A DNA stretch of 63,628 nucleotides, the filler included, from Octopus bimaculoides (taxonomy: Eukaryota), in the NCBI RefSeq assembly GCF_001194135.2. It is 6 parts of 5 records of this genome, joined end to end, with 100 filler letters (N's around TTAATTAATTAA, not from the genome) between each part and the next. Parts side by side here need not be neighbours in the genome. Positions count along the whole stretch, not along the records: positions 12,209 to 19,146 come from NC_069005.1; positions 19,247 to 24,254 come from NC_069005.1; positions 24,355 to 43,853 come from NC_068989.1; 3 more parts are not named here. The stretch is one strand, 5' to 3'. The notes under the pieces are model-generated. The model saw only the letters and a program-made list of their open reading frames with translations, ran no database searches and had not been told where the DNA came from. A program made the translations under genes and the position numbers. This document shows, piece after piece, positions 5,221 to 59,884 of the stretch; within the stretch, counting starts at the first letter, position 1; every line of letters starts with the position of its first letter.

Positions 5221-5709
5221 CACCCTGACCGACACTGTTCTCGACTAAGGGTCGCGTTCAACATGCACCGCGCGCTTTGCACCATATAATGAACTACCTC
5301 TCGGCGACAGACGGACCCTTTCTCCATCGAGTGAGCAAGAGAACTATGGAAGTAGTGGTTTTCCATCGTTGCAAATGCGAGCGACACTCCCATGCCAAAC
5401 TGGCCGTCCGACGACGCAGGTACGCGACGATGACGACGACGATGAACCGCGAGGAGCGGAACGCCGATAACCGAGCGCGCGTCACGCCACCAGTGACGGC
5501 GGCCGTCGCGGGGCAACATGAATGCTACCGCCTACCGTGTGCCCTCACAAAACCGGACTAGAGTTAAGCTCAACCGCGTCTTCTTTCCCCGCCGATTCGT
5601 CCAAACCAGTTCCCTCGGTTGTGGTTTCGCTACACAATAGATAGGGACAGTGGGAATCTCGTTAGTCCGTTCATGTACGTCATTAATTAGATGACAAGGC
5701 ATTTGGCTA
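5219..5709 (-). rRNA. Dispersed 28S rRNA fragment (pseudogene) starting at the R2 insertion site
   Basis: Plus strand matches the reverse complement of conserved LSU sequence (GACTAGAGTTAAGCTCAAC..TCTTCTTTCCCCGC..GATAGGGACAGTGGGAATCTCGTT..AATTAGATGAC.AGGCATTTGGCTA) plus a GC-rich expansion segment. Confidence 0.93.
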
Positions 5710-14569: not shown

Positions 14570-14648
14570 ATCAAAAATCAAAATAAGCAACAAGGATATT
14601 CAAGGTTATCCTTGTTGAATATCCTTGTTCCTTATTTTGATTTTTGAT
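14570..14648. repeat. Short fold-back (MITE-like) inverted repeat
   Basis: ATCAAAAATCAAAATAAGCAACAAGGATATTCAA ... TTGAATATCCTTGTTCCTTATTTTGATTTTTGAT, ~34-bp arms. Confidence 0.75.
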
Positions 14649-15172
14649 CACCTTATTTTTGGGAATTGTTCGGATAATACCATACTAAATTCTGGTGCCT
14701 AAACTTAAGTACCATATTCACTTTTAATCTAAATTTTATATATATATATAGGTAAGTAGAGTGAGCGGTTAGAATAACCGTCTAAGAGCTAAGAATATCC
14801 GTAATTGCTACCGGTGTAAATTAACTATGTTAACCCTGGACATGGGTATACAAGCATACTATGCACTAAGAATACAGGTAATAACAGAATAAGCGAGAGT
14901 TTATCAGAAATCAAATTTGATTCCTGATAAACTTTCGTTTATATATATTATTTTGCTTTTATTGTTTTACTTGTTTCAGTCAGTTGCTTGCGGTCATGTT
15001 GGAGCACCGCAACAAAGTCGACTCTTGGACTTATTCTTTGTAAACCTAGTACTTATTCCATCGGTTTTTTTTTTGCCGAACCGCTAAGCCACGGTGACAT
15101 AAACACACCAGCATCGGTATTGTCAATCGATGGCGCGGTGGCAGACACACACACACACACACAAATATATAC

Positions 15173-15203
<31 letters not shown>

Positions 15204-15669
15204 NNNNNNNNNNNNNNNNNNNNNNNNNNNNNNNNNNNNNNNNNNNNNNNNNNNNNNNNNNNNNNNNNNNNNNNNNNNNNNNNNNNNNNNNNNNNNNNNN
15301 NNNNNNNNNNNNNNNNNNNNNNNNNNNNNNNNNNNNNNNNNNNNNNNNNNNNNNNNNNNNNNNNNNNNNNNNNNNNNNNNNNNNNNNNNNNNNNNNNNNN
15401 NNNNNNNNNNNNNNNNNNNNNNNNNNNNNNNNNNNNNNNNNNNNNNNNNNNNNNNNNNNNNNNNNNNNNNNNNNNNNNNNNNNNNNNNNNNNNNNNNNNN
15501 NNNNNNNNNNNNNNNNNNNNNNNNNNNNAAATTGGTTTTTTCTCATCTTGTATGAAGAATACCGAACGCCTTCATGCACTACCTGCCTGATAAGAGACTC
15601 CCATGTCCCTGGCGATTCACCTGATTGATTTGGAAGGATCATTGTCAATCATGGCCCGGATCTCACCAA

Positions 15670-17689
15670 GAAATTCAACCCCCAATCTGACACATCTACA
15701 CTCCTTTGTCTGGCCGAACTTACCCTCTCACTTAATTGCTTCTCGTTCGCAGATGATTTTTACCAGCAGTTTTCGGAAGTGGCCATGGGAACGAGAATGG
15801 GCCCCAACTATGCGAACCTGTTCGTTGGCTACATCGAGGCCCAAATATTCTCAAGTTTCACTGGTCCAACTCCTATATTGATGACTATATCGGTGCGAAC
15901 TCACTCTCCCTCGAACTTCCTCTCTTTTGTCAAATCTTTCCATCCTGCCCTCCACTTCTCCAGCACTATTTCCGATACCTCAGTCGCCTTTCTCGGCATT
16001 TCGGTCAGCATTCATCACTCCACTCTTACCACCTTCATCCACTACAAACACACAGACTCACATTCATACCTCAACTTCTCCTCCTTCCACCCTAAACAGA
16101 CCAAGCTCTCCATCCCCTATTCCCAATTCCTCTGTCTATGCGGGCTCTGCAGTGACGACCATGACTTTGAGACTCAGTCTCAACTCATGGCTCGCTACTT
16201 CATCCTACATAGATATCCCCTCACCACTATTCACACTGCCCTTTCCAGAGCACGTTCCGTGGACCGTGCATCTGCTCTCTCCCACCGCTCTCGCCTCCCG
16301 TTTCCCTTCACCTACCACCCACCACCTACCTCTCCAACGCACCATTCTCCGAACCTTCCGATGATTCCAGTCCGACCCCTCCACTTCGCACATTTTCCCT
16401 AACCTACCCCTCCTCTCCTTCAAACGAGCCCACAACCTACGAGATCTCTTGGTACACAGCTTTTTCCCTAACCCAACCTCCCAACCCGGCTTCCCCTGCT
16501 CCTGCCCACGCTGCCGCACTTTCCCTTACCTCTCCAACACCACCCTCCTCACAAGCACCTATCATCGACCCTATCATATCACTGACTCCTTCACCTGCAC
16601 TTCTAACAACGTCATCTACTGCATCTCCTGCTCTCTCTGTCCTTCTCTATACATCGGTCAAACGGGACACCGCTTGGCTGACCGGAATACCTCCAAGACA
16701 TCAGACCCAGCAACGACAACCCGGTCTCCTGCCATTTCCACTCTACTTGTCACTCCTTACAACGCCTGTCTGTGTTCGGTTTGTCCTTTCACAGGGGCCA
16801 TCCGGACTCCCGTCTTCGCTGTGAGCAGGGATTAGTCTTCTCTCCTCGCTCCTTTGTGCCACATGGGCTCAACTCTCCTCCCCTCTTCATCTAACCCTCC
16901 TCCTCTCTCCTCTCTTCCTTTCACACCTCCTTCCTTCCCCCACCCCTCCTCCCTTGCTTTGACACTTGCTCCCTCTCTTCACTCCTACCCACCTACTCCC
17001 TTCCACCCTCTCCCGTCATCGTCACCCCTCCCTCGTTACCCCACCCCTACACATTCCAACNNNNNNNNNNNNNNNNNNNNNNNNNNNNNNNNNNNNNNNN
17101 NNNNNNNNNNNNNNNNNNNNNNNNNNNNNNNNNNNNNNNNNNNNNNNNNNNNNNNNNNNNNNNNNNNNTAGACCCTACCCTTGCTTCCCTATTCTTCCTT
17201 CCTCCACACACAAACACCACCAAGCCACCACACTACACCACCACCACACCACACACCACCATACCACACCACATCACACCACCCCGCACACACTAGCACT
17301 GACCACTTCCAAGCACCCACACCATCATCCACACACCTACAGATGCACACATGCACACGTTAGGGTCACCAGCTCCCTTCCACACGCACATACACGCTCT
17401 CACATACACACGCACGCCACACCTTCGTTTTGATATCACCACTACTTTATTATCTCCCCTTCTTCCTAGCTCTCCTGTGTGACTCTTCTGTCCAGCATTC
17501 GCCATGATAGTTCGCTAGCCACTAAAACTTTTGTGTTTTCTCTTCCTGTTTATTTCTGTGTTCCTTTCTGTCGAAGAGCGTAGGCTCGAAACGTAAAAGA
17601 CTTTGTCACTTCCCGAGCGTTAAACTAATACATCTGTTTGTTGTTTACACACCCGTCTTCGTCTTTTGTTTTTTGTAAATTCCCACCAT

Positions 17690-17690
<1 letters not shown>
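15670..17690 (+). mobile_element. Penelope-like element (RT + GIY-YIG) with 3' pLTR
   Basis: VAMGTRMGPNYANLFVGYIE, TFIHYKHTDSHSYLNFSSFHP, SIPYSQF, FTCTSNNVIYCISCSLCPSLYIGQTGHRLADR; terminal hammerhead-like motif at 17564-17599. Confidence 0.9.
17564..17599 (+). ncRNA. Minimal Penelope-type hammerhead, variant core CUGUCGA
   Basis: CUUU-CUGUCGA-A-GAGC[GUAG]GCUC-GAAAC-GUA-AAAG: stems I and II pair and stem III is the palindromic ACGU. Confidence 0.6.
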
Positions 17691-17747: not shown

Positions 17748-17873
17748 GTGTATATATATACATATAAGTATATATATATATGTATGTATATGTATATATA
17801 TATACATATATATATGTGTGTGTATATACTATTTATTTATACTATTTATCTATACTATTTATCATGTATTAAA

Positions 17874-17926
17874 GCGCTACCAATTGTTTCGTATTTTGAG
17901 AAAACTCAAACATATTCTTCAGGCGC
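17874..17926 (-). ncRNA. Type I hammerhead motif (left arm of fold-back)
   Basis: Minus: GCGC-CUGAAGA-AUAUGUUUGAG[UUUU]CUCAAAAUAC-GAAAC-AAUUG-GUA-GCGC. Confidence 0.7.
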
Positions 17927-18402
17927 AAACCACATATCATAAAGAACTAAAGACATTGAATAATAGAAGAAACGCGAAAAAACAGAGAAGGCAGCATATA
18001 GAAAACGCAGACAGTAAACAACGGAAAACGAAAAACCGAAAACGAAATGCAGAAACTAAAAGTAAATATAAAAGGTAAACATGTATAAAAGAGCTATCCT
18101 CCTTACAGCTTAAATGATAAGGCTGGAAAGATATCAAATCAGTCAGGAATATGCGGAATTTTCCAATTCTTCAGAATGTATTTATATATTAGCATGCAAC
18201 CACTGAAAATTTAAGGTCTAAAGAGGTTAGCACTTTTTTCATTTCTACCTTTTACTTTTTTTCTGACATTTTAGTTTCTGTTTTCGTTTTCAGTTTTGCG
18301 TTTTTTATTTTTTTTTTTTTTGCGTTTTCTATATGCCGCCTTCTCAGTTTTTTCGCGTTTCTTTTTTATTCAATTTCTTTAGTTCGTTATGATATGTGGT
18401 TT

Positions 18403-18455
18403 GCGCCTGAAGATTATGTTTGAGTTTTCTCAACATATGAAACTATAAGTAGCGC
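18403..18455 (+). ncRNA. Type I hammerhead motif (right arm of fold-back)
   Basis: GCGC-CUGAAGA-UUAUGUUUGAG[UUUU]CUCAACAUAU-GAAAC-UAUAA-GUA-GCGC. Confidence 0.7.
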
Positions 18456-18535
18456 TTTAATACATTAAATAAATAATATTTATCTCTCATCAAATGGATT
18501 ACTTTTTTGTTGAATTTTCTATCACAGATCAGTAC

Positions 18536-18613
<78 letters not shown>

Positions 18614-19249
18614 AAATACGATGCACGTAGGAGTGTTCTCGCATAAGATAAATAAGGAATTAATCAATCTATGCTGGACCTAATTTCTCGCAAAAGTCCA
18701 GAGTCAATGCAAGGAGATAAGAATTAAGATATTCTTCTAAGTTATGTCCCGTGATCTATGTATATATATATATGGGAATCCCGTTCTGTCTCGTTTATTA
18801 TCGTGTATTCTCGTTCTTTATCATGAAGAACAAATCAACAGTACAAAGAAATCAAATGCCAATCCCTTTAAAACAGCAACCCCCTTTAACACTAGAAAAA
18901 TCACCGTATCACTACATCTACACATTCAAAGCAGCTTACCAGCAGTCCTTCAGCATCAACACACTTCTGTTTAACTCAGTGGCTACTGCTAACTTCAGGC
19001 CACGACAGAGAGGATGCTCTTGAAGCCGAGAATTTGAACTTATGGAGACAATATTTACATATCGCTTGAGAAAACACAATTAGATCTCTTAATGCAGGGA
19101 AACGGTTGCATAATCAAGTACCTGCATGTCTAGAGAACTACTTTACNNNNNNNNNNNNNNNNNNNNNNNNNNNNNNNNNNNNNNNNNNNNTTAATTAATT
19201 AANNNNNNNNNNNNNNNNNNNNNNNNNNNNNNNNNNNNNNNNNNNNATA

Positions 19250-20720
19250 CATCATAGAAAGGATTAGGACTAAAGTTGACTTCGGTTGACTTCTGACCAC
19301 TTTCGTTCAGTGGAAAGAATTCAACAGGGTCGACTGTCGTTACTTGGAAGCCGTCTTGAAATCGGTTGGGTCTGCACTCGATTTCAGAGGCTGGATCACT
19401 GTATAGTATAGCGGCACCTGCTCGGTAGTCAAAGTGAACGATCACTTCTCGGAACCGTTTCGCATCTCACGCTCCGTCTGTCAAGGCTCCCCACTCTCCC
19501 CTCTTCTGTAGTATTGGCTCTTGACATCACATTTCATCTGGGATCCGTATGCAGACGACATCACATATATGGTGTCGAATACCAGCGAAGTGGAGACGTC
19601 CGGTACCATTCTAAGGGAATACGAGACAGTAGCAGCGGCGAAGTTGAAGAGAGAGACAATTCGATGGGCTTGAAGTTGGGCACCTGGACTAATAAACCTG
19701 GTTAGGTCCCTCCCTCCAAGTTTGCCGGAAATGGAAGAGTGATGGGCATGGTGGGGCCAATCGTACTCAGAAAGGGTCGAGAGAAAGCCCTGCAAGTCTG
19801 ACATAGATGGCGAATGCCTTCATCGCCTGCGCTATTATTTACCATCAGAATGTTTTATCTTGTTTCAGATACCGCCTGCTCAAGTTGAAGCGACTGTTAT
19901 TCAGTTTCATGTGGAAGGGACGCATCCTACTTGTCAAGTCACCCATTTTCTGCCAACACCCTCTCTATGGTGGTTTAGACATGCTTTGGTTTTGGTGCAC
20001 AAGCGTGTACTGTGGTTGAGCCACTAGTAAACGATAGCTGGACTGCGATCGTTTGTGGGCACCGTTCGTGAGGCATGTCTTTTCGAAGCTCGACTCCTTG
20101 ACAGAGCAGCAGCCCCGGCAAAACAAAAACCGAGAGTGGGTGACTGACGTTCTTGGGTTGTCTTGGAGTGTCGACGAAAATATTGGAGGGTAATTTCCCG
20201 AGGACTTTCAGCTCGAGAACTGCTGTGGTTAATTCCCAGAAGTCCTTCAAATATCATTGCTACTAAGGACCGCTAATGATTCGCGATCAACGCCACCGAC
20301 ACGGAAGTTCTGTCAGACAAGCCTATTTGAGAAGCGCTCAGAGCGACAAAATATCTTTGCATGCAATCGTTCAGTGTCCATGCACTGCGGGATTGTGAAA
20401 TTTGTCGAATAGCTGTTGTCGCGTGGAGGACGGATTCCGCTACCAGCCGAATCAAAAGTAAGGGTTATTCAGCTGCTCTCTTTTAATTGGACGGCAGTTT
20501 TCTTCAGCGAAAGCGGTTGTGCTGTGAACAAAATTAAAAGAGACAGATATTCCTCTTTGGAAGAGGCCTCATTGACATTTTGGAGTTTCAATTGAAAAAG
20601 GTGAGGTGGGAGAGAGAGGTGCTATCGTCGAGTGAATGTATTGAATAGTGGATGAAAGCGGCGAAAATAATAAGACGTCCTTCAGGTGTCTTGAGGTGTC
20701 AACGAAATATAATAGGGCAT
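19250..20720 (+). mobile_element. Degenerate Tx1/L1-like LINE RT and 3' region
   Basis: EFNRVDCRYLEAVLK, SRSVCQGSPLSPLL, YADDITYMVSNTSEVETSGTILREYETVAAAKL, CQHPLYGGL. Confidence 0.88.
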
Positions 20721-20796
20721 TTTCCTGAAGACTTTCAGCTAGAGGGCTACTATGAATAATTTCCACAAATCCTGTACTTGTTGTTACTGCTAAAGA

Positions 20797-21200
20797 CCAA
20801 GGCGGCGAGTTGGCAGAACCGTTAGCACACCGGGCGAAATGCTTAACGGTATTTTGTCTGCCGCTACGTTCTGAGTTCAAATTCCGCCGAGGTCGACTTT
20901 GCCTTTCATCCTTTCGGGGTCGATTAAATAAGTACCAGTTACGCACTGGGGTCGATATAATCGACTTAATCTGTTTGTCTGTCCTTGTTTGTCCCCTCTG
21001 TGTATAACCCCTTGTGGGCAGTAAAGAAATAGGTATTTCGTTTGCTGCTATGCTCTGAGTTCAAATTCTGCCGAGGTCGACTTTGCCTTTCATCCTTTCG
21101 GGGTCGATGAAATAAATACGAGTCACATGCTGGAGCCGATGTAATCGACTAGACCCCTCCCCTGAATTTCAGGCCTTGTGCCTATAGTAGAAAGGATTAT
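20797..21200 (+). mobile_element. SINE family A, tandem copies (one full length)
   Basis: tRNA-like head GGCGGCGAGTTGGCAGAACCGTTAGC...GAGTTCAAATTCC; related copies near 22.8, 32.1, 32.2, 33.4, 38.3, 40.5(-) and 41.2 kb. Confidence 0.85.
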
Positions 21201-22188
21201 TTCTCAAACTCCTTAAATCACAAGAGGTTTTTGAGCATTCAGAAATGTGCAACAAGAAACATATTTTGAAGTCATGAAATGGTGTTATCCTATTTTACTG
21301 GCCAAAACCGTTTGTGTCTGCTACACTTGTGTCGGTTTTCTCAGAATATATTTCAAACATGAAACTATTTCCTGTACCATCAATGTTTTAGATTGAACTA
21401 CTTTAATTTATATTTTCCAGTACGACGAGAATTCGATGAGGAAGAAACTGGAAAAAAAAAAAAAAATTATAATTATTTTTTAATCAATAAAGATTAATTC
21501 GTTTTTTGATACGCTCCAATTATTTCTGCCAAATTCTTACAGTATTATGGATATTTATTTATTATTGTTATTAATTTATAGTTGTTTTTTCTTTGAGAAA
21601 TGCTAAAACCTTACAAATATTTCTACTTGCTCATAATCTCAAGGGAATGATGCTGCTCTCAGACTTTTCAATATTCTATCCAACCGGAAATGGTCGAGAA
21701 TTGTTACATGACACACGCGCTCGCACACACACACACGCACACACGCACACACACATACGCACGCGTGTGCGCAATGTATGTGTAGTTTCTATAAATCAAA
21801 TCAGCAAGAACTAAAGAAAAAATAGGTCTCACGTGAATATAATTGCATATTTAAAACATGATAATATAGTTTCTCTTCCCCTCCCAACATATATGCCAAG
21901 AGAGAGAGAGAGAGAGAGAGTAAAAGTGAAAGAGAGGAAGAAATAGGAAAAAGAGTGTGAGAGGCGGCCCATCATCGTCAGCCGGTTCCCACAGGAACCA
22001 TCGTTTTATGACTGAGTGATGTCAATTGGAGTAACACCTCAATGAAAAAAAAAACAAAAAACATTTGACCCTTGGACAAGAATAGGTATGTAGATAGATA
22101 GATAGATAGATAGATAACTAGATGGATAAATAAATAGATAGATAGATAACTAGATGGATAAATAAATAGATAGATAGATAACTAGATG

Positions 22189-22226
<38 letters not shown>

Positions 22227-23640
22227 AAACTATATAGATAGATAGATAGATAGATAGAAAACTATATGGATAGATAGATGAATAAATAGATAGATAGATA
22301 GATAGATAGAGAGATAGATAGATATGTCTTCAAAAGTATTTAGTAAGAAACTATGGAAAATTTTAGTAATTGAGTATGAAAATAAGACACCAATGGAATA
22401 TTCATTTATTACACATTGATCCTATGTTTATCCAGAGGTGAAGTGTATCTTCATTTTTACCTTATATAGAGTTGAAATGTATACCGCGTTATCGATACAT
22501 CCACATTGTACTTCTTCACTACATTGCACAATATCTTGTGCAATCAGTATGACTGTCTTTTATGTCCACCTCGCAACCACCGTGAATCAGCCTGTATGAT
22601 GAATGCCTGTCGTTATAATCGCGTATAAAATTCTCAAACGGTTATGGTTATCAAAACTATTGTCTTTAATCTCTGTCTAACACTGGTTTCAATTTTTGGC
22701 ACAATGCCAGCAATTTGTGGGGGTGGGGATAAGTCGATTTCACCGACCCAGTATTCGACGGGTACTTATTTTATTGACCCCCACCCACCCCAATATTATT
22801 AACGTCCAGTTTATGCCAGCGAGCTGGCAGTCATTAGCACGCTTAGCGGCATTTTGTCCGCCTTCACGTTTTGTGTTCAAATTCAGCCGAGGTCCTTTCA
22901 TTCTTTCGGGGCCGATAAAATCAGTACCAGTTGAGTCGATGTAATCGATTTACCTCCACCCCCAAAATTGCTGGCCTTGTGTCAACATTTGAAATCAGTA
23001 TTAACGGCCAGTTGTGGTTTATCTAAAGGGCTCCGTTCCGTTATGATTACAATAAGCACCATCCAACGTATATTTCTTCCTTCTGAAGCAAAGCTGATAT
23101 TCGAAACCTTGTGTTTTTTTTTCCACTCCCCTCCCCAAATCAATAAACTGCAATTTATTTTTGATCTATGATTTCTTTTCTTTTTTTCTTTTCATCACTG
23201 CTACATTAACACTGTATGTATTGTATAGCATGTTAGTATTGCAGTATTTTAATTACCTCGTTAAACCCGTTCCGATTGACCAAACTATCAGAGCGTGTCA
23301 GCTGTGTAACTGAAGATTTGTCACATAACATACTGTTTAATTAATTTATCCTAATTGATATTCAAATGGCTATTGTTCAGCTCCAGTCACAATATTTACT
23401 GTCTTTTCACTTAACACATCACATTCATATATATATATATATATACATATAAAGTACCGAAACATCTAGTTAGAATAGAGGCAGCTGACGAAGGATTTAT
23501 TCCAAGTGGCTATCTGTTTTCCTATGTGTTCGTTCCGTTGTCTGTAGTTCATTGTTCTAACGTCCTGTACCCTGATATGCATCTATATACACATGTAAGT
23601 ATGTACATATATGTGTGTATACATGCATATATATTCTTTG

Positions 23641-23677
<37 letters not shown>

Positions 23678-24061
23678 TGCACACTCTCAAATGCATAGAC
23701 ATATACAGACACACATGCACAAGAACATATACACTCATACATACACATACACATAAGCGTTTCCATTTATTCATACACATTTACATACCAGTAAATGTAT
23801 TGCATGGAAGACATACACACATACATGTATATATATATGTATGTATACATTTTTGAATACGCATATATACCTATGCATGCATGTCTCAGTGTGCTTATAT
23901 ATTCTCATTTCCCCACAAACGTAACCATCTGTCTTGGCCAGTTATCAATCTTTTAATGTCACATCTAACGTTTGCAAAGTAATGGAGACGGCCATTAACA
24001 AGGACGTTCTCCAACACCTTCAATTTCTCTCTTTCACTAACTCTCTGTCTGTCTGTTTGGC

Positions 24062-24110
<49 letters not shown>

Positions 24111-24545
24111 TTCTCTCTCTCTGGGCTGAATGACAAACAGTTTGGCGCCCGCATAATGTGTTTAAAATATCTATTTATCTTTACCGAAAACAATAATATT
24201 TTTAAAAAGAGGACCCTAGAAGAATGAACATATTTCAAACCTCCCTGGTACATTNNNNNNNNNNNNNNNNNNNNNNNNNNNNNNNNNNNNNNNNNNNNTT
24301 AATTAATTAANNNNNNNNNNNNNNNNNNNNNNNNNNNNNNNNNNNNNNNNNNNNTAGGAACGAGGAAGATATGTTTGAATTTTTGGAAATAAGGCTCTAA
24401 ATAGAGCTATTTCCGATTTGAAAAATATATGTTCACGAAGTATTTTGTGTTATACACAACTTATACAAAATTTTAAAACAAAATAGGTCTTTTAAGAGGT
24501 GAAAAATGCAACTTACATGGGAGCCGATGTGTCTACCGTCCGTCC

Positions 24546-24589
<44 letters not shown>

Positions 24590-24626
24590 GTAGGGAGGTA
24601 GATAGGTAGGGAGGTAGGTAAGTAGG

Positions 24627-24692
<66 letters not shown>

Positions 24693-26235
24693 CACACACA
24701 CATATATATATATATGTGTGTATATATATCTATGTGTGGCTGTGATAGCATGAAAAAGCACCAAAGTTTTGAGGGGCGACTCCATCGACTAAACCCGTCA
24801 ACGTGGTGCCCCAGTATGGCCGCAGTCAAATGGCTAAAACAAGTAAAAAAAATAAAAGAATAAATACATAGACCTGTATATATTAATATATATGCATTGT
24901 ACGTAGGTCTTCTTTCACCAGAATACAAATCTAATCTCTTTCTCCTCACATTTGTTTCTGCTTTATTTTTTCTGTCATTTTATCTGTTTATTTAGTTATC
25001 GCGGTACCAACACTATATCTCATCCATCACCGCGATAACCACCTAAACCAACACCGCAAACACCACCTCGACCAAAAGCAACTAACATCACCTTTCACTG
25101 TTATCAGTCCTTATTAATTTCATCGTCACCATCATCATCGTAATCATCACCATCATCATCATCATCATCGTAATCATCACCATCATCATCATCACCATCA
25201 GCGTCACCATCAGCGTCATCACCATTATGATCATCGTCATCATCACCGTCACCACCACCACACCCACCACCACCACCACACCCACCACCACACCCATNNN
25301 NNNNNNNNNNNNNNNNNNNNNNNNNNNNNNNNNNNNNNNNNNNNNNNNNNNNNNNNNNNNNNNNNNNNNNNNNNNNNNNNNNNNNNNNNNNNNNNNNNNN
25401 NNNNNNNNNNNNNNNNNNNNNNNNNNNNNNNNNNNNNNNNNNNNNNNNNNNNNNNNNNNNNNNNNNNNNNNNNNNNNNNNNNNNNNNNNNNNNNNNNNNN
25501 NNNNNNNNNNNNNNNNNNNNNNNNNNNNNNNNNNNNNNNNNNNNNNNNNNNNNNNNNNNNNNNNNNNNNNNNNNNNNNNNNNNNNNNNNNNNNNNNNNNN
25601 NNNNNNNNNNNNNNNNNNNNNNNNNNNNNNNNNNNNNNNNNNNNNNNNNNNNNNNNNNNNNNNNNNNNNNNNNNNNNNNNNNNNNNNNNNNNNNNNNNNN
25701 NNNNNNNNNNNNNNNNNNNNNNNNNNNNNNNNNNNNNNNNNNNNNNNNNNNNNNNNNNNNNNNNNNNNNNNNNNNNNNNNNNNNNNNNNNNNNNNNNNGA
25801 TATTTCTTTCTTTTTTTTTTTGCCCTTATCGTTCTTATTATTATTCATATTTATTATCGCCGTCCACATCGTTCGTCGTATCCTACATTCTCTCTCTCTG
25901 TTTTTTTTTTCTTTGCTTGTTTCTTTCTTTGCTTTTTTTTTTTTCGTCTTTTCTTTTTCCTTCGCCATTGTGTCTCGCGTGATTTGGCGTTCGGAAGCGT
26001 GAGAATAGTTGCCAAACAAACGTTGAAAGAGATTAAGTAATATGGCGCTACAGATAATTCCGCCACCCTGACAAGATAATCTCGGCCAGTATTCAGGAAA
26101 CCTGGCAACATCACTATCCTTTGCAGGGCAACAGGGCAATAAAGACAACACATACAAAAAGACAAAAAAAAAACAATAACAATAACAAGAAATGCCTTAC
26201 CGATAAATGCGCCATCACCCACCAGTAGCACTACG

Positions 26236-26280
<45 letters not shown>

Positions 26281-26302
26281 GCTGCTGCTACTACTGCTAC
26301 TG

Positions 26303-26340
<38 letters not shown>

Positions 26341-26416
26341 GCTACTACTACTACTACTACTGTTGCTGCTGCTTCTACTACTACCACTACTACTTTTAAT
26401 ACAGTTACTTCTGCTG

Positions 26417-26447
<31 letters not shown>

Positions 26448-26483
26448 AGCTACTAGTGCTGCTACTACTACTACGACTACAAC

Positions 26484-27476
26484 GGATCTATTTCAAAACG
26501 GGGGCACCAGTTTTCATTTATGTTTTATGTAGTGTTTTTGGTACCGAAACACTTTCAAACTTCGTATACTTATCTATTTTGTGTTNNNNNNNNNNNNNNN
26601 NNNNNNNNNNNNNNNNNNNNNNNNNNNNNNNNNNNNNNNNNNNNNNNNNNNNNNNNNNNNNNNNNNNNNNNNNNNNNNNNNNNNNNNNNNNNNNNNNNNN
26701 NNNNNNNNNNNNNNNNNNNNNNNNNNNNNNNNNNNNNNNNNNNNNNNNNNNNNNNNNNNNNNNNNNNNNNNNNNNNNNNNNNNNNNNNNNNNNNNNNNNN
26801 NNNNNNNNNNNNNNNNNNNNNNNNNNNNNNNNNNNNNNNNNNNNNNNNNNNNNNNNNNNNNNNNNNNNNNNNNNNNNNNNNNNNNNNNNNNNNNNNNNNN
26901 NNNNNNNNNNNNNNNNNNNNNNNNNNNNNNNNNNNNNNNNNNNNNNNNNNNNNNNNNNNNNNNNNNNNNNNNNNNNNNNNNNNNNNNNNNNNNNNNNNNN
27001 NNNNNNNNNNNNNNNNNNNNNNNNNNNNNNNNNNNNNNNNNNNNNNNNNNNNNNNNNNNNNNNNNNNNNNNNNNNNNNNNNNNNNNNNNNNNNNNNNNNN
27101 NNNNNNNNNNNNNNNNNNNNNNNNNNNNNNNNNNNNAAAATTGTTATACACATAGATACGCACATCGTAATTTATTATATAAACAATATATGCGTATAAA
27201 TTACGATTAAACCGGATGAAATATGTCACAGGGAATAACATTTTTATGACGGCCCAGCAGTAACTCTATTCAGCTGAATAGACGTCAGTGATTGGTTGAA
27301 ATTACAGAAATACGACAACTTTAACATGGAATAACTTGCGATGTACGTCTTTTTGTTAAGAAGACTAAGAGTAAAAGATGTTTTATATGACACATTCTAC
27401 CGGTGTCCCAAGTTTCAAAGTCTTTCGTTAGTGTTTCGTTAAGAAAATACTGGTGCCCCCGTTTTGAAATAGATCC
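26484..27476. mobile_element. Non-autonomous DNA transposon, 27-bp perfect TIRs, 8-bp TSD (Merlin- or hAT-type)
   Basis: GGATCTATTTCAAAACGGGGGCACCAG at 26484 and its exact complement ending 27476; ACTACAAC at 26476-26483 and 27477-27484; interior partly a gap. Confidence 0.88.
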
Positions 27477-27696
27477 ACTACAACTACTACTATCACTGCT
27501 GCTGATGTTGCTACTGATACTACTGATTCTACTGCTGATACTACCACTAATATACTACTGCTGCTACTACTACTACTATTACTATCAGTGCTGTCATCTT
27601 TGAAACTATCATCAACGACTGCGTCACTACGATACTGGCTCTGTCATGAGATATGCAATTGAGCATGCCAAGATAAATAACTCGCAGGGTTTTACT

Positions 27697-27710
27697 GCCC
27701 CCTGGCGGCC
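27697..27710 (-). promoter_or_regulatory. CTCF-like binding motif
   Basis: GCCCCCTGGCGGCC matches the core CTCF consensus GCCCCCTGGTGGCC in AT-rich surroundings. Confidence 0.4.
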
Positions 27711-27839
27711 CCCTTGATTGGTCCAGGTATAGACAGTGTTTTCAACATCATCTTTAGGCAATGGGTAACCAATGTGTCCCTTAAAGTTAAAATCGAACGT
27801 AAACTTCAAAAGATATCAGGTACTAATACAGTGTTGACA

Positions 27840-28345
27840 TGAGCTTCAATAGATAAGTCGAAGGGGCTTACTGCACCCGTAGGGGTCCCTTTGATAAGTT
27901 CAAGTAAAAGTTCATGTTTTCACCTTCCTCTGTTAGCCAAAGGTTATCAATACGTCTCGTTTCGTGGAAACCAAACTCGAACTCGAGCTGTTATGACGTT
28001 TTGTTGCATTGATGATATCAACTTCCACATTCATCAAATTCAGGTCTCCTACCTGAATTTTTGCGCAAGTGCATGCCTGCAAATTTGTAGGTCATAAGCA
28101 AACAAAAGATTAATTTTGGTGAAGATGAGAGGCAAACTGCAGGAAATTTGGGGCCTTTATGCAGTTGTATTGCTGACTCCAAGAGAGGCCTAAGGGGGTT
28201 ATCTACCCCGGGAGTGGCGCAACAATCGATGTACGGAAAAATAAAATAGCCTACAACGCATAATAGGGCTTCAGAAACTTATGTATGAAATTTGGTTCAA
28301 ATCGGTTGTAAAATGTAGAAATGCATGCAGTTACACAGACAGACA
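27840..28345 (+). mobile_element. Possible Helitron/Helentron-associated non-autonomous element
   Basis: ATGAAATTTGGTTCAAATCGGTTG...CACAGACAGACAGACA end motif typical of such elements; no coding support. Confidence 0.35.
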
Positions 28346-28364
28346 GACATCTGTATTATATACT

Positions 28365-28845
28365 TTTTACTCTTTTACTCTTTTACTTGTTTCGGTCACT
28401 TCACTGTGGCCATGCTCGAGCACCGCCTTTGGTCGAGCAAATCGGCCCCAAGACTTATTCTTTGTAAGCCTAGTACTTATTCTATCGGGCTGTTTTGCCG
28501 AATCGCTACATTACGGGGACGTAAACACACCAGCATCGGTTGTCAAGCGATGTTGGGGAGACAAACACAGACACACAAACATATACACACATATACATAT
28601 ATATATANNNNNNNNNNCACACCAGCATCGGTTGTCAAGCGATGTTGGGGAGACAAACACAGACACACAAACATATACACACATATACATATATACGACG
28701 GGCTTCTTTCAGCTTCCGTCTACCAAATCCACTCACAAGGCTTTGGTCGGCGCGAAGCTATAGTAGAAGACACTTGCCCAAGATGCCACGCAGTGGGACT
28801 GAACCCGGAACCATGTGGTTTGTAAGTAAGCCACTCCTACGCCTA
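28365..28845 (-). mobile_element. SINE family B (tRNA head, internal (TA)n/(TG)n, RTE-like tail)
   Basis: Minus head AGGCGTAGGAGTGGCT...GGTTCAGTCCC with Pol III A/B boxes; tail CAGCATGGCC.CAGT..TGAC.GAAACAAGTAAAAGAGT. Confidence 0.85.
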
Positions 28846-29583
28846 TATATATATACATAATATGTGTATGTATATATGTATACATCCTCTGTAATGTATT
28901 ATGTATGTATGTATGTATGTATGTATGTATGCATGTATATATGCATGTTTGTATGTATGTATGTATGTATGTATGTATACGTGTGTTGTGCAAAGATTCA
29001 GCGTTAATAAATAATAAATTTTCATATTTTTTTCCCCCGGTCTAACATGAAGTCATTGGAAGTAAGAAATACCAACCGTGGACATCATCTACAAAGCAAA
29101 GCAAAATTAAACGATTGATGTTCTGTTCTCAAAATATACAATGACTTACATCTCGTACAGAAACAATAATCTTAACCGGGTGTTGATAATTCGGCAATAT
29201 TTATAATAATACATCATAAGGAACAGCTATGAGCGATTATAAGCGCTGTATAAATTATGATATACATATGTACATAAGTTACAATATGAGCGTATGTGCT
29301 GCCGTTGCTCTGAGTGTTCTGATTCAAATAAACATGTAGTTGAAGAAAGTAACTTTTACTTTTGTCTCATATGTTAGGTTTACTTCTTAATTTTTTTTTT
29401 ATTAAAGATAAAACTATAACACTAGGCAGTAGTACCATTCGTTACCTCTCTATTTATATCACCTTCCAGGTGCACATGTTCTATAACAAGATGCGACGAT
29501 ATTGTTTAGATAAGATAAAATCACATATTCAAACTGATTCTCTCATGTTTTGTTTACACACACACACACACACAGAGGCATGC

Positions 29584-29668
<85 letters not shown>

Positions 29669-29805
29669 GAGATGTACTTGCATAGCAAGCGACCTGATCT
29701 GAGACTGTGTGCTGGAACAAAAATAATTGCAGCGTGGAAGGTGTTTATAAGCCATTTAGAATAACACACAAAAACCGTTAGATTCACTTCAACATTTAAA
29801 TTTAA

Positions 29806-29858
29806 TTTGTCAAAAATATTTTCGTCGCTTTGAGACCGCGACCTGTTGAGTGACAAAA
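29806..29858 (-). ncRNA. Decayed hammerhead variant (left arm)
   Basis: Minus: UUUGUCA-CUCAACA-G-GUCGC[GGUCUCAAA]GCGAC-GAA-AAUAUU-U-UUGACAAA; stems intact, core altered. Confidence 0.45.
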
Positions 29859-29871
29859 TTCTGTGCTGAAT

Positions 29872-29922
29872 TTTTTCAGTGAACAGGTCGCGGTCTCAAA
29901 TCGACGAAAATATTTTGACAAA
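29872..29922 (+). ncRNA. Hammerhead variant with G3-C8 core (GUGAACA)
   Basis: UUUUUCA-GUGAACA-G-GUCGC[GGUCUCAAA]UCGAC-GAA-AAUAUU-U-UGACAAA; the two arms together give fully paired stems I and II. Confidence 0.6.
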
Positions 29923-30087
29923 TTAAATTTAAATGTTGAAGTGAATCTAACGGTTTTTGTGTGTTTCTTTGTTTGAGTTTAACCTAAAGATTAAATTACA
30001 TAATTAAATCATTTTATTAGGCAGAATCTCATCAGAGGGCTAGAATGATATACAACACCTAATAACCTAACGGTATATCTTTTCTAC

Positions 30088-30168
30088 CTCTCTGATGAGA
30101 TTTTGTCTAATACAATGGTTTAGCTATTGTAATTTAGTCTTTAGACTAAATTGAAACAGCTGTAAGAG
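30088..30168 (+). ncRNA. Type I hammerhead with extended stem II
   Basis: CUCU-CUGAUGA-[GAUUUUGUCUAA...UUAGACUAAAUU]-GAAAC-AGCU-GUA-AGAG; palindromic stem III ACAGCUGU; predicted cut after 30164. Confidence 0.75.
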
Positions 30169-30336
30169 AATATGTTGGATCTTGTAGTTAATAAATTATA
30201 TTACCACTGGTTTCACGTACATTATTGCAATTAGCAATATAGGTGACCAATCACAACACCTGGCCAATGCACTTGGTGTTTCTGCGACACCTGTATAAGC
30301 TGATGTTGAAATGTCTTTCAATAATTCAAACATGTT

Positions 30337-38443: not shown

Positions 38444-38580
38444 TGGCAGTCCTGTTGTTGTAATTTAGCCCCAGGAGACATCGTCTCCAGCTGGCTATAC
38501 GACATGATCTCTGTCCTAGCTGGAGATGATGTCTCCTGGGGATAAATTACAACAACATTAGTCCTAAACCAGGACTGCCA
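38444..38580. mobile_element. Fold-back MITE
   Basis: TGGCAGTCCTG..TTGTTGTAATTTA.CCCCAGGAGACATC.TCTCCAGCT mirrored as AGCTGGAGA.GATGTCTCCTGGGG.TAAATTACAACAA..CAGGACTGCCA. Confidence 0.75.
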
Positions 38581-39489
38581 CGTTAGGCGGTGGTGGTNNN
38601 NNNNNNNNNNNNNNNNNNNNNNNNNNNNNNNNNNNNNNNNNNNNNNNNNNNNNNNNNNNNNNNNNNNNNNNNNNNNNNNNNNNNNNNNNNNNNNNNNACG
38701 GTCGCCGTCAGTGTCGTGGTGATAATGATGACGATACAGTGATGGTTATCAAAAGGAGTCATTGACTTTTAGCCACAGGTTAACCCAAATCGAACAGACC
38801 TAGGATTCAAACAACAAACACCCCGAACAATTTTCTTTTCGCAACCAAAACATAATCTAAGTATAAATTCTAGGGTACATCAACAAATATGTCCTTCACA
38901 TTTTTAACCGATCATCTGCATGCCGAGAGAGATTTGACTGATATTTTTAGCACGCAGGCTGAACAACCACATAGATGCTCCCACGTTAGCTCGAAAATCA
39001 ATATATTGATAAGAAATGTAGGATGCCAGCCTGTGAATGTATTTGTGTGTTAATGTATGCCTGTATAAGCAGTACCATTGTTCCTAATCAAAAGAAATAA
39101 ATGTATGCATGACGGTGAGAGAGTTAGGCGAGATGGTTAAACACCTAACTACATCTAATGCAGCATTTCCTTTCGTGTAAATAGAGATAGCCGTGTGGAT
39201 AACATTTTAGCTTCTCAATAATCTGGTTGTGCGTTTGTTCGATTCTATTGCGTGATTGATATATAGAGCACGAGTTTTTTGCTGCTGCCTCGAGTTTGCC
39301 TAATTCCTATAAAATGAAACTTTGTAGAAAACGGTCAAATTAAACAATACTTGTAAATAGAAAACCAAACCTCCTCACCTTTATTTTGTTCTATTTTTGC
39401 ATCATTTCCATTCGTGTTAATAGGAATGGCCGTGTTTAAGAAATTAGCTTCTCAGTCATATGGTTCTCTGTTTCTTCCGTTCTACAGCG

Positions 39490-39950
39490 CGGTATATTCG
39501 GCACGTGATACGTTTGGCACGTGATACATTTAGTACGTGGTACATTTGGCTCGTGTTACATTTGGTACGTGGTGCATTTAGCACGTGTTGCATTCAACGC
39601 GTGGTAACTTTGGTACGTGGTACATTTGGCACGTGGTACCTTTGGTACGTGTTACATTTGGTACGTGGTGCATTTAGCACGTTTTACATTCAGCACGTGG
39701 TACCTTTGGTACTTGGTGCATTTGGCACGTGATACATTTGGCATATGGTACATTTAGCACGTGGTGCGTTTGTTACATGTTACATGTGGCCCGTGGTACA
39801 TTTGACCCGTGTTACATTTGGCCCGTGGTACATATGGCCCCTGGTACATTTGGCCCCTGGTACATTTGCCGCGTGGTACGTTTGCTACATGGTACATTTG
39901 TCACGTGGTACAATTTGTACGTGGAATATTTGGTACACGGTACATTTAGC
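39490..39950. repeat. ~16-bp minisatellite (GCACGTGGTACATTT(G/A))n
   Basis: About 28 degenerate units, many containing CACGTG. Confidence 0.9.
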
Positions 39951-39954
39951 TCGA

Positions 39955-40200: not shown

Positions 40201-42502
40201 ATGTCCAACATGATAATGAAAGCCATGTGTAATAGCGGAGACAAGAAAACCCTTTTTGGAACAAGTGATCAATTCCACTGCGTAATACATTGAGCCACGT
40301 CTTCGGATCCATCTAATTCTTGTGACTACTGGTAATTGGAAGATGCAGTTTTGTCTCAAACTTGATTGCAGACACTGCCCTGGAATGTATCCAGGACCTA
40401 GATGTAGTGATGATGGACTGACAAGTGTGGCGGGTAGGCTTTGGAACTCAGCTATAATAATAACAATAATCCTTTCTACTGGAAGCACAAGGCCTCAAAT
40501 TTGGTGGGAGGGGATAAGTTAATTGCACCGACCCCAGTACTCAACTGGTACTTATTTTATCGACTCCGAAAGGATGAAAGGCAAAGTCGACTCGGCGGAA
40601 TTTGAACTCAGAACGTAGCGGTAGACGAAATACCGCTAAGCATTTCGTCCAGCGCGCTAACGATTCTGCCAAATCGCTGCCTTATTCATACTAATAATAA
40701 TCTTTTCTACTCTAGAGACAAGGCCCGAAATTTTGGGTGAGAGGGCCAGTCGATTAGATCGACTCCAGNNNNNNNNNNNNNNNNNNNNNNNNNNNNNNNN
40801 NNNNNNNNNNNNNNNNNNNNNNNNNNNNNNNNNNNNNNNNNNNNNNNNNNNNNNNNNNNNNNNNNNNNNNNNNNNNNNNNNNNNNNNNNNNNNNNNNNNN
40901 NNNNNNNNNNNNNNNNNNNNNNNNNNNNNNNNNNNNNNNNNNNNNNNNNNNNNNNNNNNNNNNNNNNNNNNNNNNNNNNNNNNNNNNNNNNNNNNNNNNN
41001 NNNNNNNNNNNNNNCATTACGTGGAACCTTAAGCTAAACACTCCTTTTTATACTTTAGTTTCGGGTTGACCCAAAATTGTGAATGAAACTGTACGCGGAG
41101 CCCGTGAGATTGAACCTTTGATTCAAAGAGTCGGTCTTGTTACACACCATGTCACATTGATTCTGCTTAAAAGCTGCAGTAAAATAAAGGTGGCAAGCTG
41201 TCAGTAACGTTAGCACACCGGACAAAATGCTTAGCGGTACTTTGTCTGCCGCTACGTTCTGAGTTCAAATTCTGCCGAGGTCGACTTCGCCTTTCATCGT
41301 TTCGGGGTCGATTAAATAAGTACCAGTTGCGTACTGAGGTCGATCTAGTCGACTGCCCCCCCTCCCCAAAATTTTCGGGCCTTGTGCCTACAGTAGAAAA
41401 GAATAAAATTAAACGCTCTGTGGAATACTCATACACTTAAACAGTAATTCAATAAATGGATAGCTCAAACAACACCTGATTATTACAGTTTTACAGATAC
41501 TTCATTTGTGCTGCTTAATGAACAACTAAAATGATCATCGTCGAAAACGAAGGAGGCTCGTTTAAAACGTTTATTGGAGTATGTATATGGGGGCGCGCGC
41601 ACGTGTGTGTTTGTGTGTGTGCGTCTGTGTGTGTGATTTGCTTGTGGAAATTATGAGAACGGATGTAAAATTCAGTGTTACATGAGGAGTCTATCTGATG
41701 GCCGGTTTCTATGGAATATTCAGCCAGCTAAACTATATTTCAATGTGTAGTTATTTCCGTAGATCAAACAACTCTCACACCTGTTCGTCGACACGAAAAC
41801 CACCGGAAATGTATTTACTCAATCCATAAAAGGAAAGAAAAACATTTGATTAAACATAATGGCAGATTTCTTTTTAAAAAAGAATGTAAAGGTTTATTGA
41901 AAAAGAAACAAATTGTAAATGTACTTATGATTTGCTATTTTCTTCCTTTTTTTTTCTTCTCTTTTTTTTTTGTTGCTTGGTAAACTCTTTAACACTTTAA
42001 CAAGTTTCAGCTCAAAAGCTGCGGTCATGCTGGAGCACCACCGTTGGTAAGTTACAAAAATGTTACAGCGTCAAACTATAGCGTTTTGTGATACTTGTGA
42101 TTCAATGAACCTGCTTGCATTCACTCGATCTGCTAGAAATAGCAACCAAATACCCCGCAAATCACCACTGAGGGACGGCATTTGATAGCGTAATTCTACA
42201 GTTTGGCCAAAAGTTTGAAACATAGATCTGCAAATTAGAATTTTTATCTTAAATGCCCAAAGTTATATTTGAATTGAATTGTACTTGGGCGCAACTCTCT
42301 TTTACTTGTTTCAGTCATTTGACTGCGGCCATGCTGGAGCAGCGCCTTTAGTCGAGCAAATTGACCCCGGGACTTATTCTTTGTAAGCCTAGTACTTATT
42401 CTATCAGTCTCTTTTGCCAAAACGCTAAGTGACGGGAGACATAAACACACCACAATCGATTGTCAAGCGATGATGGGGAGACAAACACAGACGCACAAAC
42501 AC

Positions 42503-42543
<41 letters not shown>

Positions 42544-44189
42544 CGACAGGCTTCTTTCAGTTTCCGTCTACCAAATCCACGAGGCTTTGGTTGGCCCGAG
42601 GCTATAGTAGAAGACACTTGCCCAAGGTGCCACGCAGTGGAACTGAACCCAGAACCATGCGGTTGGTGAGCAAGCTTCTTACCAGAAAGCCACTCCTGCG
42701 CCTTATATATANNNNNNNNNNNNNNNNNNNNNNNNNNNNNNNNNNNNNNNNNNNNNNNNNNNNNNNNNNNNNNNNNNNNNNNNNNNNNNNNNNNNNNNNN
42801 NNNNNNNNNNNNNNNNNNNNNNNNNNNNNNNNNNNNNNNNNNNNNNNNNNNNNNNNNNNNNNNNNNNNNNNNNNNNNNNNNNNNNNNNNNNNNNNNNNNN
42901 NNNNNNNNNNNNNNNNNNNNNTATATATATATATGTATATGTATATGTATATATGATATATACATGTGTATGCATATATGTATGCACAGAATGAGAGATA
43001 CGTGCATGCATGCATACGTGCGTTCATACGTATATAAAGAGAGATAGACAGGCGGATAGAAAGACAGACGAACAGAAACAGAGAGAACACAACTCTGGTG
43101 GGATTTGACATCAGAAAGCCAGCGTTGCGCTGCTGTTTGCTACCAAAATAATGATATGGGAAAGAAACAGCAAACGACTTCGGTTATTCGGATGTGTGTT
43201 AGAAAGATAAGAAAACTGTCATGTATTGAAAAAAGGAAGAAATCTCTAAATCACACAAGAAAGAAAAGAAATGAATAAAACTAAAAAGGGCTATAAAAAC
43301 GCACACAGAGAGAAAAAAAGCCCAGAAAAGCAGAACGATATTCTATGGGGTAATTAGAACGTGACATGTCCCGTCCCTAAACAATACGCCTTTTCCAACT
43401 GTTCCGCTAAATCTTTCATCTTTCACAGATGAAAAAAATCATGGGAACATAAATTAACACCTTGACTCCACCCTGATCGAATACTTTGCCAGCCCCCTTC
43501 AGCATAAAGAAAATAGAAAAAAAGGGCCAGCAGTTTCTTCTTAATAAAGACGCTGTTTGTTGTGTGTATGTCTATGTGTTAAGGGTGGGTGGTACCGTGT
43601 GGGTTTTTTATCTCGGATGTCATACGAACACAGATGGTGCTAATACTTTTACGGAATTAAGACAGTAAAGTGTGACATCAGTTCCGCCTCTGTTTTTCTT
43701 TTTCTTTACCAAAAATAGGGGTTTGTTTATTTATTTATTTATTTATGCCATCAGATTGCAGCACCTTTGTCACCTCTTGAAGGTATTCAGTTTCTCTTAC
43801 CCAGTTGCTCTCTGTCAGCAGTCTGATAACATTTTCTCCTATCACCACTACCANNNNNNNNNNNNNNNNNNNNNNNNNNNNNNNNNNNNNNNNNNNNTTA
43901 ATTAATTAANNNNNNNNNNNNNNNNNNNNNNNNNNNNNNNNNNNNNNNNNNNNTATATATATATATATATAAGACAGTCTTCCATACAGTTCTACCAGAT
44001 TCACTCCCAAGTCAGATCAGGGCTTTAGCAGAAAAAACTTGCTCAACGTGCCATACAGTGGGACTGAACCTAAAATCACATGGTTGTAAAGCAAGGCTAT
44101 TAACCACACAGCCATGCCCATGATGCAACAGACATGTATATCTACAGACGTTCCAGTCATGCCCATCCCTTGTATTAAGTATTACTTAC

Positions 44190-45254: not shown

Positions 45255-45546
45255 CGCAGGAGTGGCTATGTGGTAAGTAGCTTTCTTACCAACCACATGG
45301 TTCTNNNNNNNNNNNNNNNNNNNNNNNNNNNNNNNNNNNNNNNNNNNNNNNNNNNNNNNNNNNNNNNNNNNNNNNNNNNNNNNNNNNNNNNNNNNNNNNN
45401 NNNNNNNNNNNNNNNNNNNNNNNNNNNNNNNNNNNNNNNNNNNNNNNNNNNNNNNNNNNNNNNNNNNNNNNNNNNNNNNNAGCCTCGGGCCGACCAAAGC
45501 CTTGTGAGTGGATTTAGTAGACGGAAACTGAAAGAAGCCCGTCGTA

Positions 45547-45589
<43 letters not shown>

Positions 45590-45780
45590 TTGTGTGTCTG
45601 TGTTTGTCCCCCCCAACATCGTTTGACAACCGATGCTGGTGGGTTTACGTCCCCATAACTTAGCGATTCGGCAAAAGAGACCGATAGAATAAGTACTAGG
45701 ATTACAAAGAATAAGTCCCGGGGTCGATTTGCATGGCCGCAGTCAAATGACTGAAACAAGTAAAAGAGTAAAAGAGTAAT
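45255..45780 (+). mobile_element. SINE family B, full-length copy spanning a gap
   Basis: GCAGGAGTGGCTATGTGGTAAG head, internal (TA)n, GAAACAAGTAAAAGAGTAAAAGAGT tail. Confidence 0.85.
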
Positions 45781-45784
45781 TATA

Positions 45785-59761: not shown

Positions 59762-59884
59762 CTATCAATAACAAAATAAGATATAAACATTTTACAGGGT
59801 GTATATATATATAATTTGCATAAAGTGTACAATGATTTTAATACTGGTGTATATCAGTAGCCTATATTTTTCTTGCTTTTAAGT

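Follow-up and report, generated by a model that had tools for sequence, protein, structure and literature searches.

The window, by which we mean the whole 63,628-nt stretch of Octopus bimaculoides DNA analysed here, contains three palindromes, E1, E2 and E3 (Table 1), each within or next to (TA)n/(TG)n tracts, in a gap-rich assembly (6,868 N). Inverted repeats at these places had been proposed in a preliminary description, and they are real: arm identity over aligned letters is 87% in E1 (18111->17852 against 18213->18479, 224 of 257 positions identical), 96% in E2 and 83% in E3. Also as proposed, the three have no obvious sequence in common (the best between-family E of 0.09 amounts to no similarity), and no further copies of any of them were found within the window. 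Their boundaries, by contrast with those first given, are now placed at 17851-18530 (E1), 29669-29969 (E2) and 29970-~30190 (E3). A decayed Penelope-like element (PLE) with a solo hammerhead-like motif lies 0.3 kb upstream of E1; its ORF has 82 protein matches at E<=1e-3, 62 of which also match a second frame, and RVT_1 and GIY-YIG are found on the matches.

Table 1. Features discussed in the text, with positions counted along the window
Feature	Position	Strand	Description
Decayed PLE ORF (RT + GIY-YIG endonuclease)	15629..16832	+	Family distinct from E1-E3
Solo hammerhead-like motif	17564..17599	+	Minimal, unpaired; A6U; behind the decayed PLE ORF
E1 long copy	17851..18212	-	PLE-family 3' end with 5' truncation at 18212; includes the apparent "loop"
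E1 left hammerhead	17874..17926	-	Minimal type-I with a canonical core; stem I and helix III both palindromic; A-C at 10.1-11.1
E1 candidate final codons of PLE ORF	18142..18212	-	N...CxH signature, Hydra clade
E1 inverted copy	18213..18530	+	Cut ~100 nt further 3', joined directly to the long copy
E1 right hammerhead	18403..18455	+	Minimal, canonical core; T-T at 10.1-11.1
E1 one-sided 3' extension	18480..18530	+	~50 bp, PLE "tail"-like; absent from the left arm
E2 left copy	29669..29868	-	Almost complete copy of a ~205-bp repeat of very high abundance; ~5 nt of the fixed 5' end missing
E2 left hammerhead	29809..29854	-	Disrupted here by changes at positions 3 and 5
E2 inverted copy	29869..29969	+	Cut ~13 nt at 5' and ~95 nt at 3'
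E2 right hammerhead-like motif	29875..29919	+	G3-C8 core pair, U17, extra nucleotide after A9
E3 left copy	29970..30051	-	First half of hammerhead only; lacks G12, helix III and cleavage site
E3 long copy	30052..30190	+	With 3' extension; contig pieces 30052-30180, depth to ~30190
E3 right hammerhead	30088..30168	+	Canonical core, 54-nt stem II region

The three elements have the same anatomy, in which a long copy is joined directly, at its 5' end, to an inverted and differently 5'-truncated copy. In E1, what looks like a loop is part of one copy, and the other begins at the very next base; contigs are colinear over 17863-18212, beyond which the family continues with other sequence (22 and 18 contigs). 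The limits of the E2 left copy come from read depth together with loose ends at 29669 and 29868, and E2-family reads run past 29966 into left-copy sequence. E1 and E3 also have a one-sided 3' extension. This tail is clear in E1, where it occurs in another family too, to judge from the high depth of the family and from a second sequence found upstream at 18470, while the asymmetry of E2 and E3 is confounded by truncation at 29969/29970, with the E3 left arm ending at 29970. Both facing 3' ends at the E2-E3 junction would likely have been removed by deletion or secondary insertion. A search for TSDs, which are optional in PLEs, gave no clear case at any of the three elements: E2 and E3 have none, and the sole candidate at E1 is a low-complexity 18-mer.

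The strand layout first described, with the motif on the minus strand in the left arm and on the plus strand in the right arm, holds for all three elements. Two hammerheads in each do not: a recognisable core is present in four of the six arms, and only E1 keeps both. These four arms (E1 left, E1 right, E2 right and E3 right) have the core boxes, the 3-8 pair, a short stem I and a palindromic helix III. Nor do the motifs always lie at the outer ends, because those of E2 are 7-15 nt from the centre. In E1, the 10.1-11.1 pair is lacking in both arms, and position 18414 in the right hammerhead is A in most family members. At positions 3 and 5, the E2 left hammerhead carries C instead of the G that the family has in 391/397 and 396/397 reads (run X21); these changes, at 29848 and 29850, are private to this copy and unlike ~99% of family reads. 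In the E3 right hammerhead, which has G-U at 10.1-11.1 and no extra nucleotide, the pair 30106-30145 is T-A, whereas most family contigs have C-G, a compensatory change. A relaxed type-I descriptor matched five sites in the window; in 60 block shuffles, it matched 0.25 on average and 2 at most. Canonical cores numbered three against 0.03, and in per-arm tests the descriptor was matched in 7, 2 (E2) and 0 of 3000 shuffles. Three other small palindromes were without a hammerhead. In an Rfam scan, the hammerhead family was absent among the 150 listed of 217 rows; the top rows, miRNA models on hairpins and microsatellites, were rejected, every one being below its gathering score.

The palindromes had been described as non-coding Penelope derivatives, and the minimal-hammerhead anatomy, the microsatellite context, the one-sided extension, the probable C-terminus of an ORF in E1 and the PLE upstream all support this. 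The E1 segment likely holds the last codons of a PLE ORF with the N...CxH signature of the Hydra clade, as judged from a 14-residue motif that was recognised by eye in the window frame, the loose-end consensus and the family letters at 18190/18191 being taken into account. Among the Hydra-clade markers, the N...CxH end alone is present, the RT, linker and CxxC regions being missing from the stub. When compared with 82 proteins of another PLE clade, the 23-residue peptide reached a local score of 39 at best, and the motif occurred in 0/82; against Pfam, it gave only a match at E 0.16, so that no database match confirms the ORF end. A linked RT + GIY-YIG ORF of the element's own family was not seen for E2 or E3, and E1 has only the short C-terminal motif; for E2 and E3, a PLE origin is suggested by hammerhead and layout.

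Based on these data, we suggest that each palindrome is, very probably, a dead-end product of PLE insertion in which a hammerhead-bearing end piece lies head to head with a differently cut inverted copy. According to the literature, the PLE reverse transcriptase and GIY-YIG endonuclease would nick AT-rich or microsatellite DNA, copying would begin inside the RNA, giving the tail, and would stop early and then either fold back or jump to another template, the mirror arm thereby being built at insertion. The hammerheads would have been carried along from the parent RNA, in which they would be active as same-strand dimers or with help from protein. Some observations sit less easily with this model: E2 and E3 are without an autonomous parent, the ORF link of E1 rests on 14 residues, and there is no clear TSD.

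Family copies of relatives in runs X21 and X22 (RNA), X17 and X18 were compared with the window. The flank at 30259-30320 has zero depth in X21, X22 and X17, and in X18 a single bin reaches 4.25; with the flank almost without depth, the RNA data concern the relatives' family copies and not the locus itself, which was not seen in RNA. In a search of runs for the locus, the best share was 0.23, with no RNA run among those listed. For the E1 family, 10 of the 12 joints listed (17 more exist; all from X17) cross from left to right copy, each elsewhere, at a depth of 40-52, like single-locus contigs; for the E2 family, 11 of the 15 listed (123 more exist) likewise do so at differing places, at a depth of 58-105 compared with 1e5-1e6 for the arms. 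Since contigs break at palindromes, paired copies may be under-represented in both families, and joints at 80% likeness can be false. RNA reads that leave the window at 29868 into the family 5' end and unlike flanks number 178 and 113, those covering 29869 only 24 and 19. Unpaired copies supply most E2-family reads, and the fold-back is not a fixed unit, its centre varying between copies. Paired forms are not wholly untranscribed, which counts against the by-product model: for the E2 family, one fold-back copy elsewhere, with a joint 29758-29868, is present in RNA (5 reads in X21, 1 in X22).

For E2, a different origin has to be considered, namely that it is a SINE- or MITE-like repeat unrelated to PLEs, that two of its copies came to lie head to head, and that its motif is a chance look-alike. 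The core is non-canonical (G3-C8, U17), the arm alone prefers another fold by 7.5 kcal/mol, G12 is lost in 101/321 X21 reads and a parent ORF was not found. However, only two of the 3000 shuffles matched, family letters complete stems I and II (29875, 116/141 reads; 29901, 305/315 reads), the extra nucleotide, the G10.1-C11.1 pair and the palindromic helix III are as in PLE minimal hammerheads, and other E2 copies form fold-backs with differing centres; we consider this origin improbable. The E2 unit has a fixed 5' end, 5-bp inverted ends and very high abundance, and these ends are more SINE-/MITE-like than those of a random stub. For the left copy as a whole, the predicted folding does not exceed that of shuffled sequence (z 0.0), and ARAGORN found 0 genes for a tRNA-like head on the unit, a search that a decayed head would escape. 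We also entertain, as a speculation with the odds well against it, that the E2 family is a very abundant, fixed-length (~205 bp), non-coding, SINE-like PLE passenger whose ribozyme, with a naturally swapped G3-C8 core and U17, would cleave as a dimer or with PLE protein, and whose occasional transcribed fold-backs would give dsRNA that silences or edits the whole family.

That the palindromes are MITE-like or self-propagating units moving as whole hairpins is highly unlikely. The defined ends, 5-bp inverted termini and abundance of E2 and its 96% identical arms would fit such a unit, but the abundant unit is the single ~205-bp arm and not the hairpin, all listed joints differ, the arms are asymmetric and TSDs were not found. 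MITE identity was rejected on the varying centres, the asymmetric arms and the missing TSD.

More remote still is the model of the preliminary description, read here as a recurrent and selected fold-back system whose transcript would either be cleaved by its ribozyme or form long dsRNA. It is favored by the one layout in three unrelated families, by isolated E1 arms that are predicted to fold close to the hammerhead, by the fold-back transcribed elsewhere and by siRNAs from Penelope inverted repeats in flies (PMC3681739). Against it, the antisense arm precedes the ribozyme in both directions of transcription, and the predicted cost of constraining the ribozyme is 61, 60, 60, 56 and 47 kcal/mol in five fold-back transcripts compared with 1.7-8.3 kcal/mol in isolated arms; the choice is therefore unsupported. 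Two of the three elements have lost one ribozyme core, centres vary and unpaired copies dominate in E2, which argues against a recurrent system, and minimal hammerheads require a same-strand partner or protein. No pile-ups of read beginnings or ends, as expected of cleavage ends, were seen in RNA-seq of family copies; they are likewise reported to be missing for an active PLE. Nor was the A>G excess expected of editing found in this RNA: for E2/E3, the ratio (A>G+T>C)/(C>T+G>A) is 0.85 and 1.2 in RNA vs 1.21 and 0.67 in DNA; for E1, it is 0.77 and 1.06 vs 0.78 and 0.57. A>G at 29931 (94/367 and 102/314 reads vs <1% of DNA depth) was rejected as an editing site because a G>A site has a similar excess. 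Under the insertion by-product model, a read-through transcript is predicted to reach the antisense arm first and to form a long duplex and, as a result, the ribozyme would be off; at most, the RNA could serve as a passive source for siRNA or ADAR pathways. That repeats of this kind yield dsRNA and siRNA is plausible and already known for Penelope inverted repeats, which, rearranged, yield siRNAs in Drosophila (PMC3681739). An assembly or library fold-back artefact, suggested by the gaps and by the locus not being seen in the runs used, is very improbable, because the arms differ by 4-17% plus indels, far beyond sequencing error, and the asymmetric truncations track family boundaries.

Such hairpins can be mistaken for MITEs, miRNA precursors or ribozyme switches, which calls for caution. 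Of residual interest is the E2 family, which is abundant and a candidate for a natural G3-C8 hammerhead. U3-A8 cores are known from nature, and G3-C8 rescue from engineered ribozymes; a literature search, weak in that it covered the main variant paper (Lunse et al.) only through the review PMC6765202, found no natural G3-C8 hammerhead. The many differing centres could help to test how PLEs build the inverted arm.

Several known systems resemble E1-E3; three pattern scans of metagenome and prokaryote contigs gave 0 matches. Non-LTR retrozymes (bioRxiv 10.64898/2026.07.22.740005) are likewise short, non-coding and PLE-derived with a type-I hammerhead. However, they are head-to-tail tandems, while the copies in E1-E3 are inverted and cannot excise a monomer, and this identity was rejected. 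The siRNA-producing Penelope repeats of Drosophila (PMC3681739) would share the dsRNA route with E1-E3. With metazoan PLE minimal hammerheads (PMC4209133), the elements share type I, a 4-bp stem I, a long stem II, a palindromic helix III and opposite-strand pairs, which in Schistosoma lie 100-700 bp apart; they differ in the missing 10.1-11.1 pair of E1, the 54-nt stem II region of E3, and G3-C8 with U17 in E2 where U3-A8 is reported. Hydra-clade PLEs are described in PMC8557442 as having CxH after a conserved N at the ORF end, CxxC before E, DKT and RWK, and no CCHH; E1 shares with them the CxH after N, a canonical hammerhead and a (TA)n context. The closest match is the insertion unit of EN+ PLEs, a 5'-truncated copy with an adjoining inverted copy and a one-sided tail (PMC8557442, PMC3846280), head to head being the most frequent PLE arrangement (PMC3846280). 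Here, only end stubs are present, the TSD is unconvincing and the E1 extension is ~50 bp instead of 30-40, while the head-to-head joint, differing truncation points, one-sided extension, microsatellite targets and a hammerhead in the terminal repeat, in E2 a variant, are shared. Thus, E1-E3 are likely three more examples of a described PLE by-product, for which the insertion unit, opposite-strand pairs and Penelope siRNAs have already been published.

The preliminary description proposed three palindromic elements (here E1, E2 and E3), each with a hammerhead on the minus strand in its left arm and one on the plus strand in its right arm. All three inverted repeats are present and, as proposed, sequence comparison reveals no relation among their families. 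The accompanying claim of two hammerheads per element holds only in part: E1 has them in both arms, E2 (as a variant) and E3 in the right copy, while the left copies of E2 and E3 are not intact. In the window, which is microsatellite-rich, animal-type DNA, possibly cephalopod-like, with 6,868 N, a strict type-I descriptor identified three cores that are canonical and have a stem I of 4 bp, namely in both E1 arms and in E3 right; a fourth match at 13349 had a weak stem and was rejected by a later descriptor. The relaxed descriptor added the G3-C8 motif of E2 right as well as, at 17568, a solo A6U motif, giving 5 sites versus 0.25 per shuffled window, and shuffling per arm gave 7, 2 and 0 matches per 3000. 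What is said of the families rests on related sequencing runs, whose reads and contigs were aligned to the window at 80% likeness.

Palindromic elements and other repeats in the window
Feature	Position	Description
E1	17851-18530	
E2	29669-29969	family unit 29669-29868, with defined ends
E3	29970-~30190	right copy 30052-~30190
Decayed RT+GIY-YIG Penelope-like element	15629-16832	unpaired hammerhead-like motif behind it
Same element and following sequence	15629-17690	decayed element, solo A6U hammerhead-like motif, (TAGA)n tract
Two palindromes	14570-14648; 14880-14952	70-80 bp, without hammerheads, flanking a short AT-rich segment
Head-to-head palindrome	38453-38557	105 bp, without hammerhead; arms end in ACA-rich tails
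Non-LTR retrotransposon ORF fragments	512-2466; 4604-5248	weak RVT_1 and zf-RVT matches for 512-2466
Dispersed repeat family	42297-42711; 45481-45779; 57955-58367; 59884-60291	~400 bp, internal (TA)n tract, several copies, both orientations
Degenerate tandem arrays	45750-47900; 39488-39953	

In E1, the arms align as 18111->17852 against 18213->18479. Because contigs span 17863-18212 without a break, with the family running past 18212 into other sequence, the "loop" is part of the long minus copy. The plus copy follows directly at the next base; it starts some 100 nt further 3' and has about 50 bp extra at its 3' end. A 13-nt stretch present in many family members is missing from both arms, which suggests one template for both. 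Among the listed joints with inserted letters (12 of 29), 10/12 lead from the left copy into the right one without a change of strand, a path that only a fold-back permits; each listed fold-back joint has its own position and single-locus depth. The commonest inverted form that Penelope-like elements (PLEs) take, the head-to-head palindrome, is attributed to self-priming in PMC3846280. According to PMC11167929, PLE copying begins inside the RNA, giving a tail, with AT-rich nicks preferred; protein assists the hammerhead in cleaving, and insertion in vitro can do without this cleavage. With family letters (the bases found in the family's reads and contigs), the long copy can be read at its 5' end as an ORF end with the pattern L-N-x-R-x-E-x4-C-x-H. 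As read from the sequence, this would agree with the CxH beside a conserved N of Hydra-clade PLEs, which have hammerheads and (TA)n as target (PMC8557442); the peptide had no match among 82 proteins of another PLE clade or in Pfam. The 3' extension (18470-18530) is common to a second, more highly transcribed family with other upstream sequence (160 and 124 reads). PLEs with solo hammerheads occur in this neighbourhood, as the decayed element has an unpaired motif behind it; its degenerate cysteine linker suggests that it may be Neptune-like.

The E2 family has a summed contig depth (not copy number) roughly 100x that of E1 and 270-490x that of E3 in run X17. Family reads in run X21 carry G at core position 3 (391/397) and position 5 (396/397), and thus the left core is broken in this copy only; the right copy is truncated on either side. 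With family letters, stem I of the motif is completed to 4 bp and stem II to 5 bp. At E2, 178 and 113 RNA reads continue beyond 29868 into the end proper to the family and into dissimilar flanks, versus 24 and 19 covering 29869, about half with the family letter; therefore, unpaired copies dominate these transcripts. Among the listed joints, 11/15 are other fold-backs with differing centres, and one of them is present in RNA (6 reads). The family termini (29669-29674 and 29868) form a 5-bp inverted repeat, with a small hairpin near the 3' end. On the sense strand of the family, A>G at 29931 and at 29949/29779 occurs in about 18-35% of RNA reads and is far rarer in DNA contigs, reflecting either editing or alleles of expressed copies.

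In E3 right the core is canonical and stem II is long, one pair of the stem being compensatory relative to the family. E3 left stops at 29970, where E2 right ends too, and lacks the cleavage half. Because window sequence comparison found neither missing end nearby, a deletion or replacement likely took both.

The proposed switch between cleavage and long dsRNA is unsupported. Owing to the fold-back geometry, transcription from either side yields the antisense arm first, and a fold-back transcript constrained to the ribozyme fold pays 47-61 kcal/mol, versus 1.7-8.3 for isolated arms (nearest-neighbour model without tertiary contacts or proteins). Single-arm RNAs could arise if a promoter lay at the palindrome centre, and would still need a partner; bidirectional pLTR promoters have been proposed (PMC3846280). 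RNA tables, whose reads represent family copies of related runs and not the E1-E3 locus, contained neither end pile-ups nor an editing excess.

The E2 G3-C8 family is the single lead meriting a bench test. Its motif shares with the PLE minimal hammerheads listed in PMC4209133 a palindromic helix III, the G10.1-C11.1 pair and the extra nucleotide, but differs from them in G3-C8 and U17. A PLE hammerhead was partially rescued by an engineered G3-C8 swap (PMC11167929). By contrast, the computed preference of the isolated arm for an alternative fold (7.5 kcal/mol) and the frequent loss of G12 in family reads would argue against activity. Inverted truncated PLE copies (PMC8557442), minimal hammerhead pairs on opposite strands (PMC4209133) and siRNAs from Penelope inverted repeats (PMC3681739) are already described; E1-E3 are real and probably ordinary PLE stubs, new examples of an already known type.
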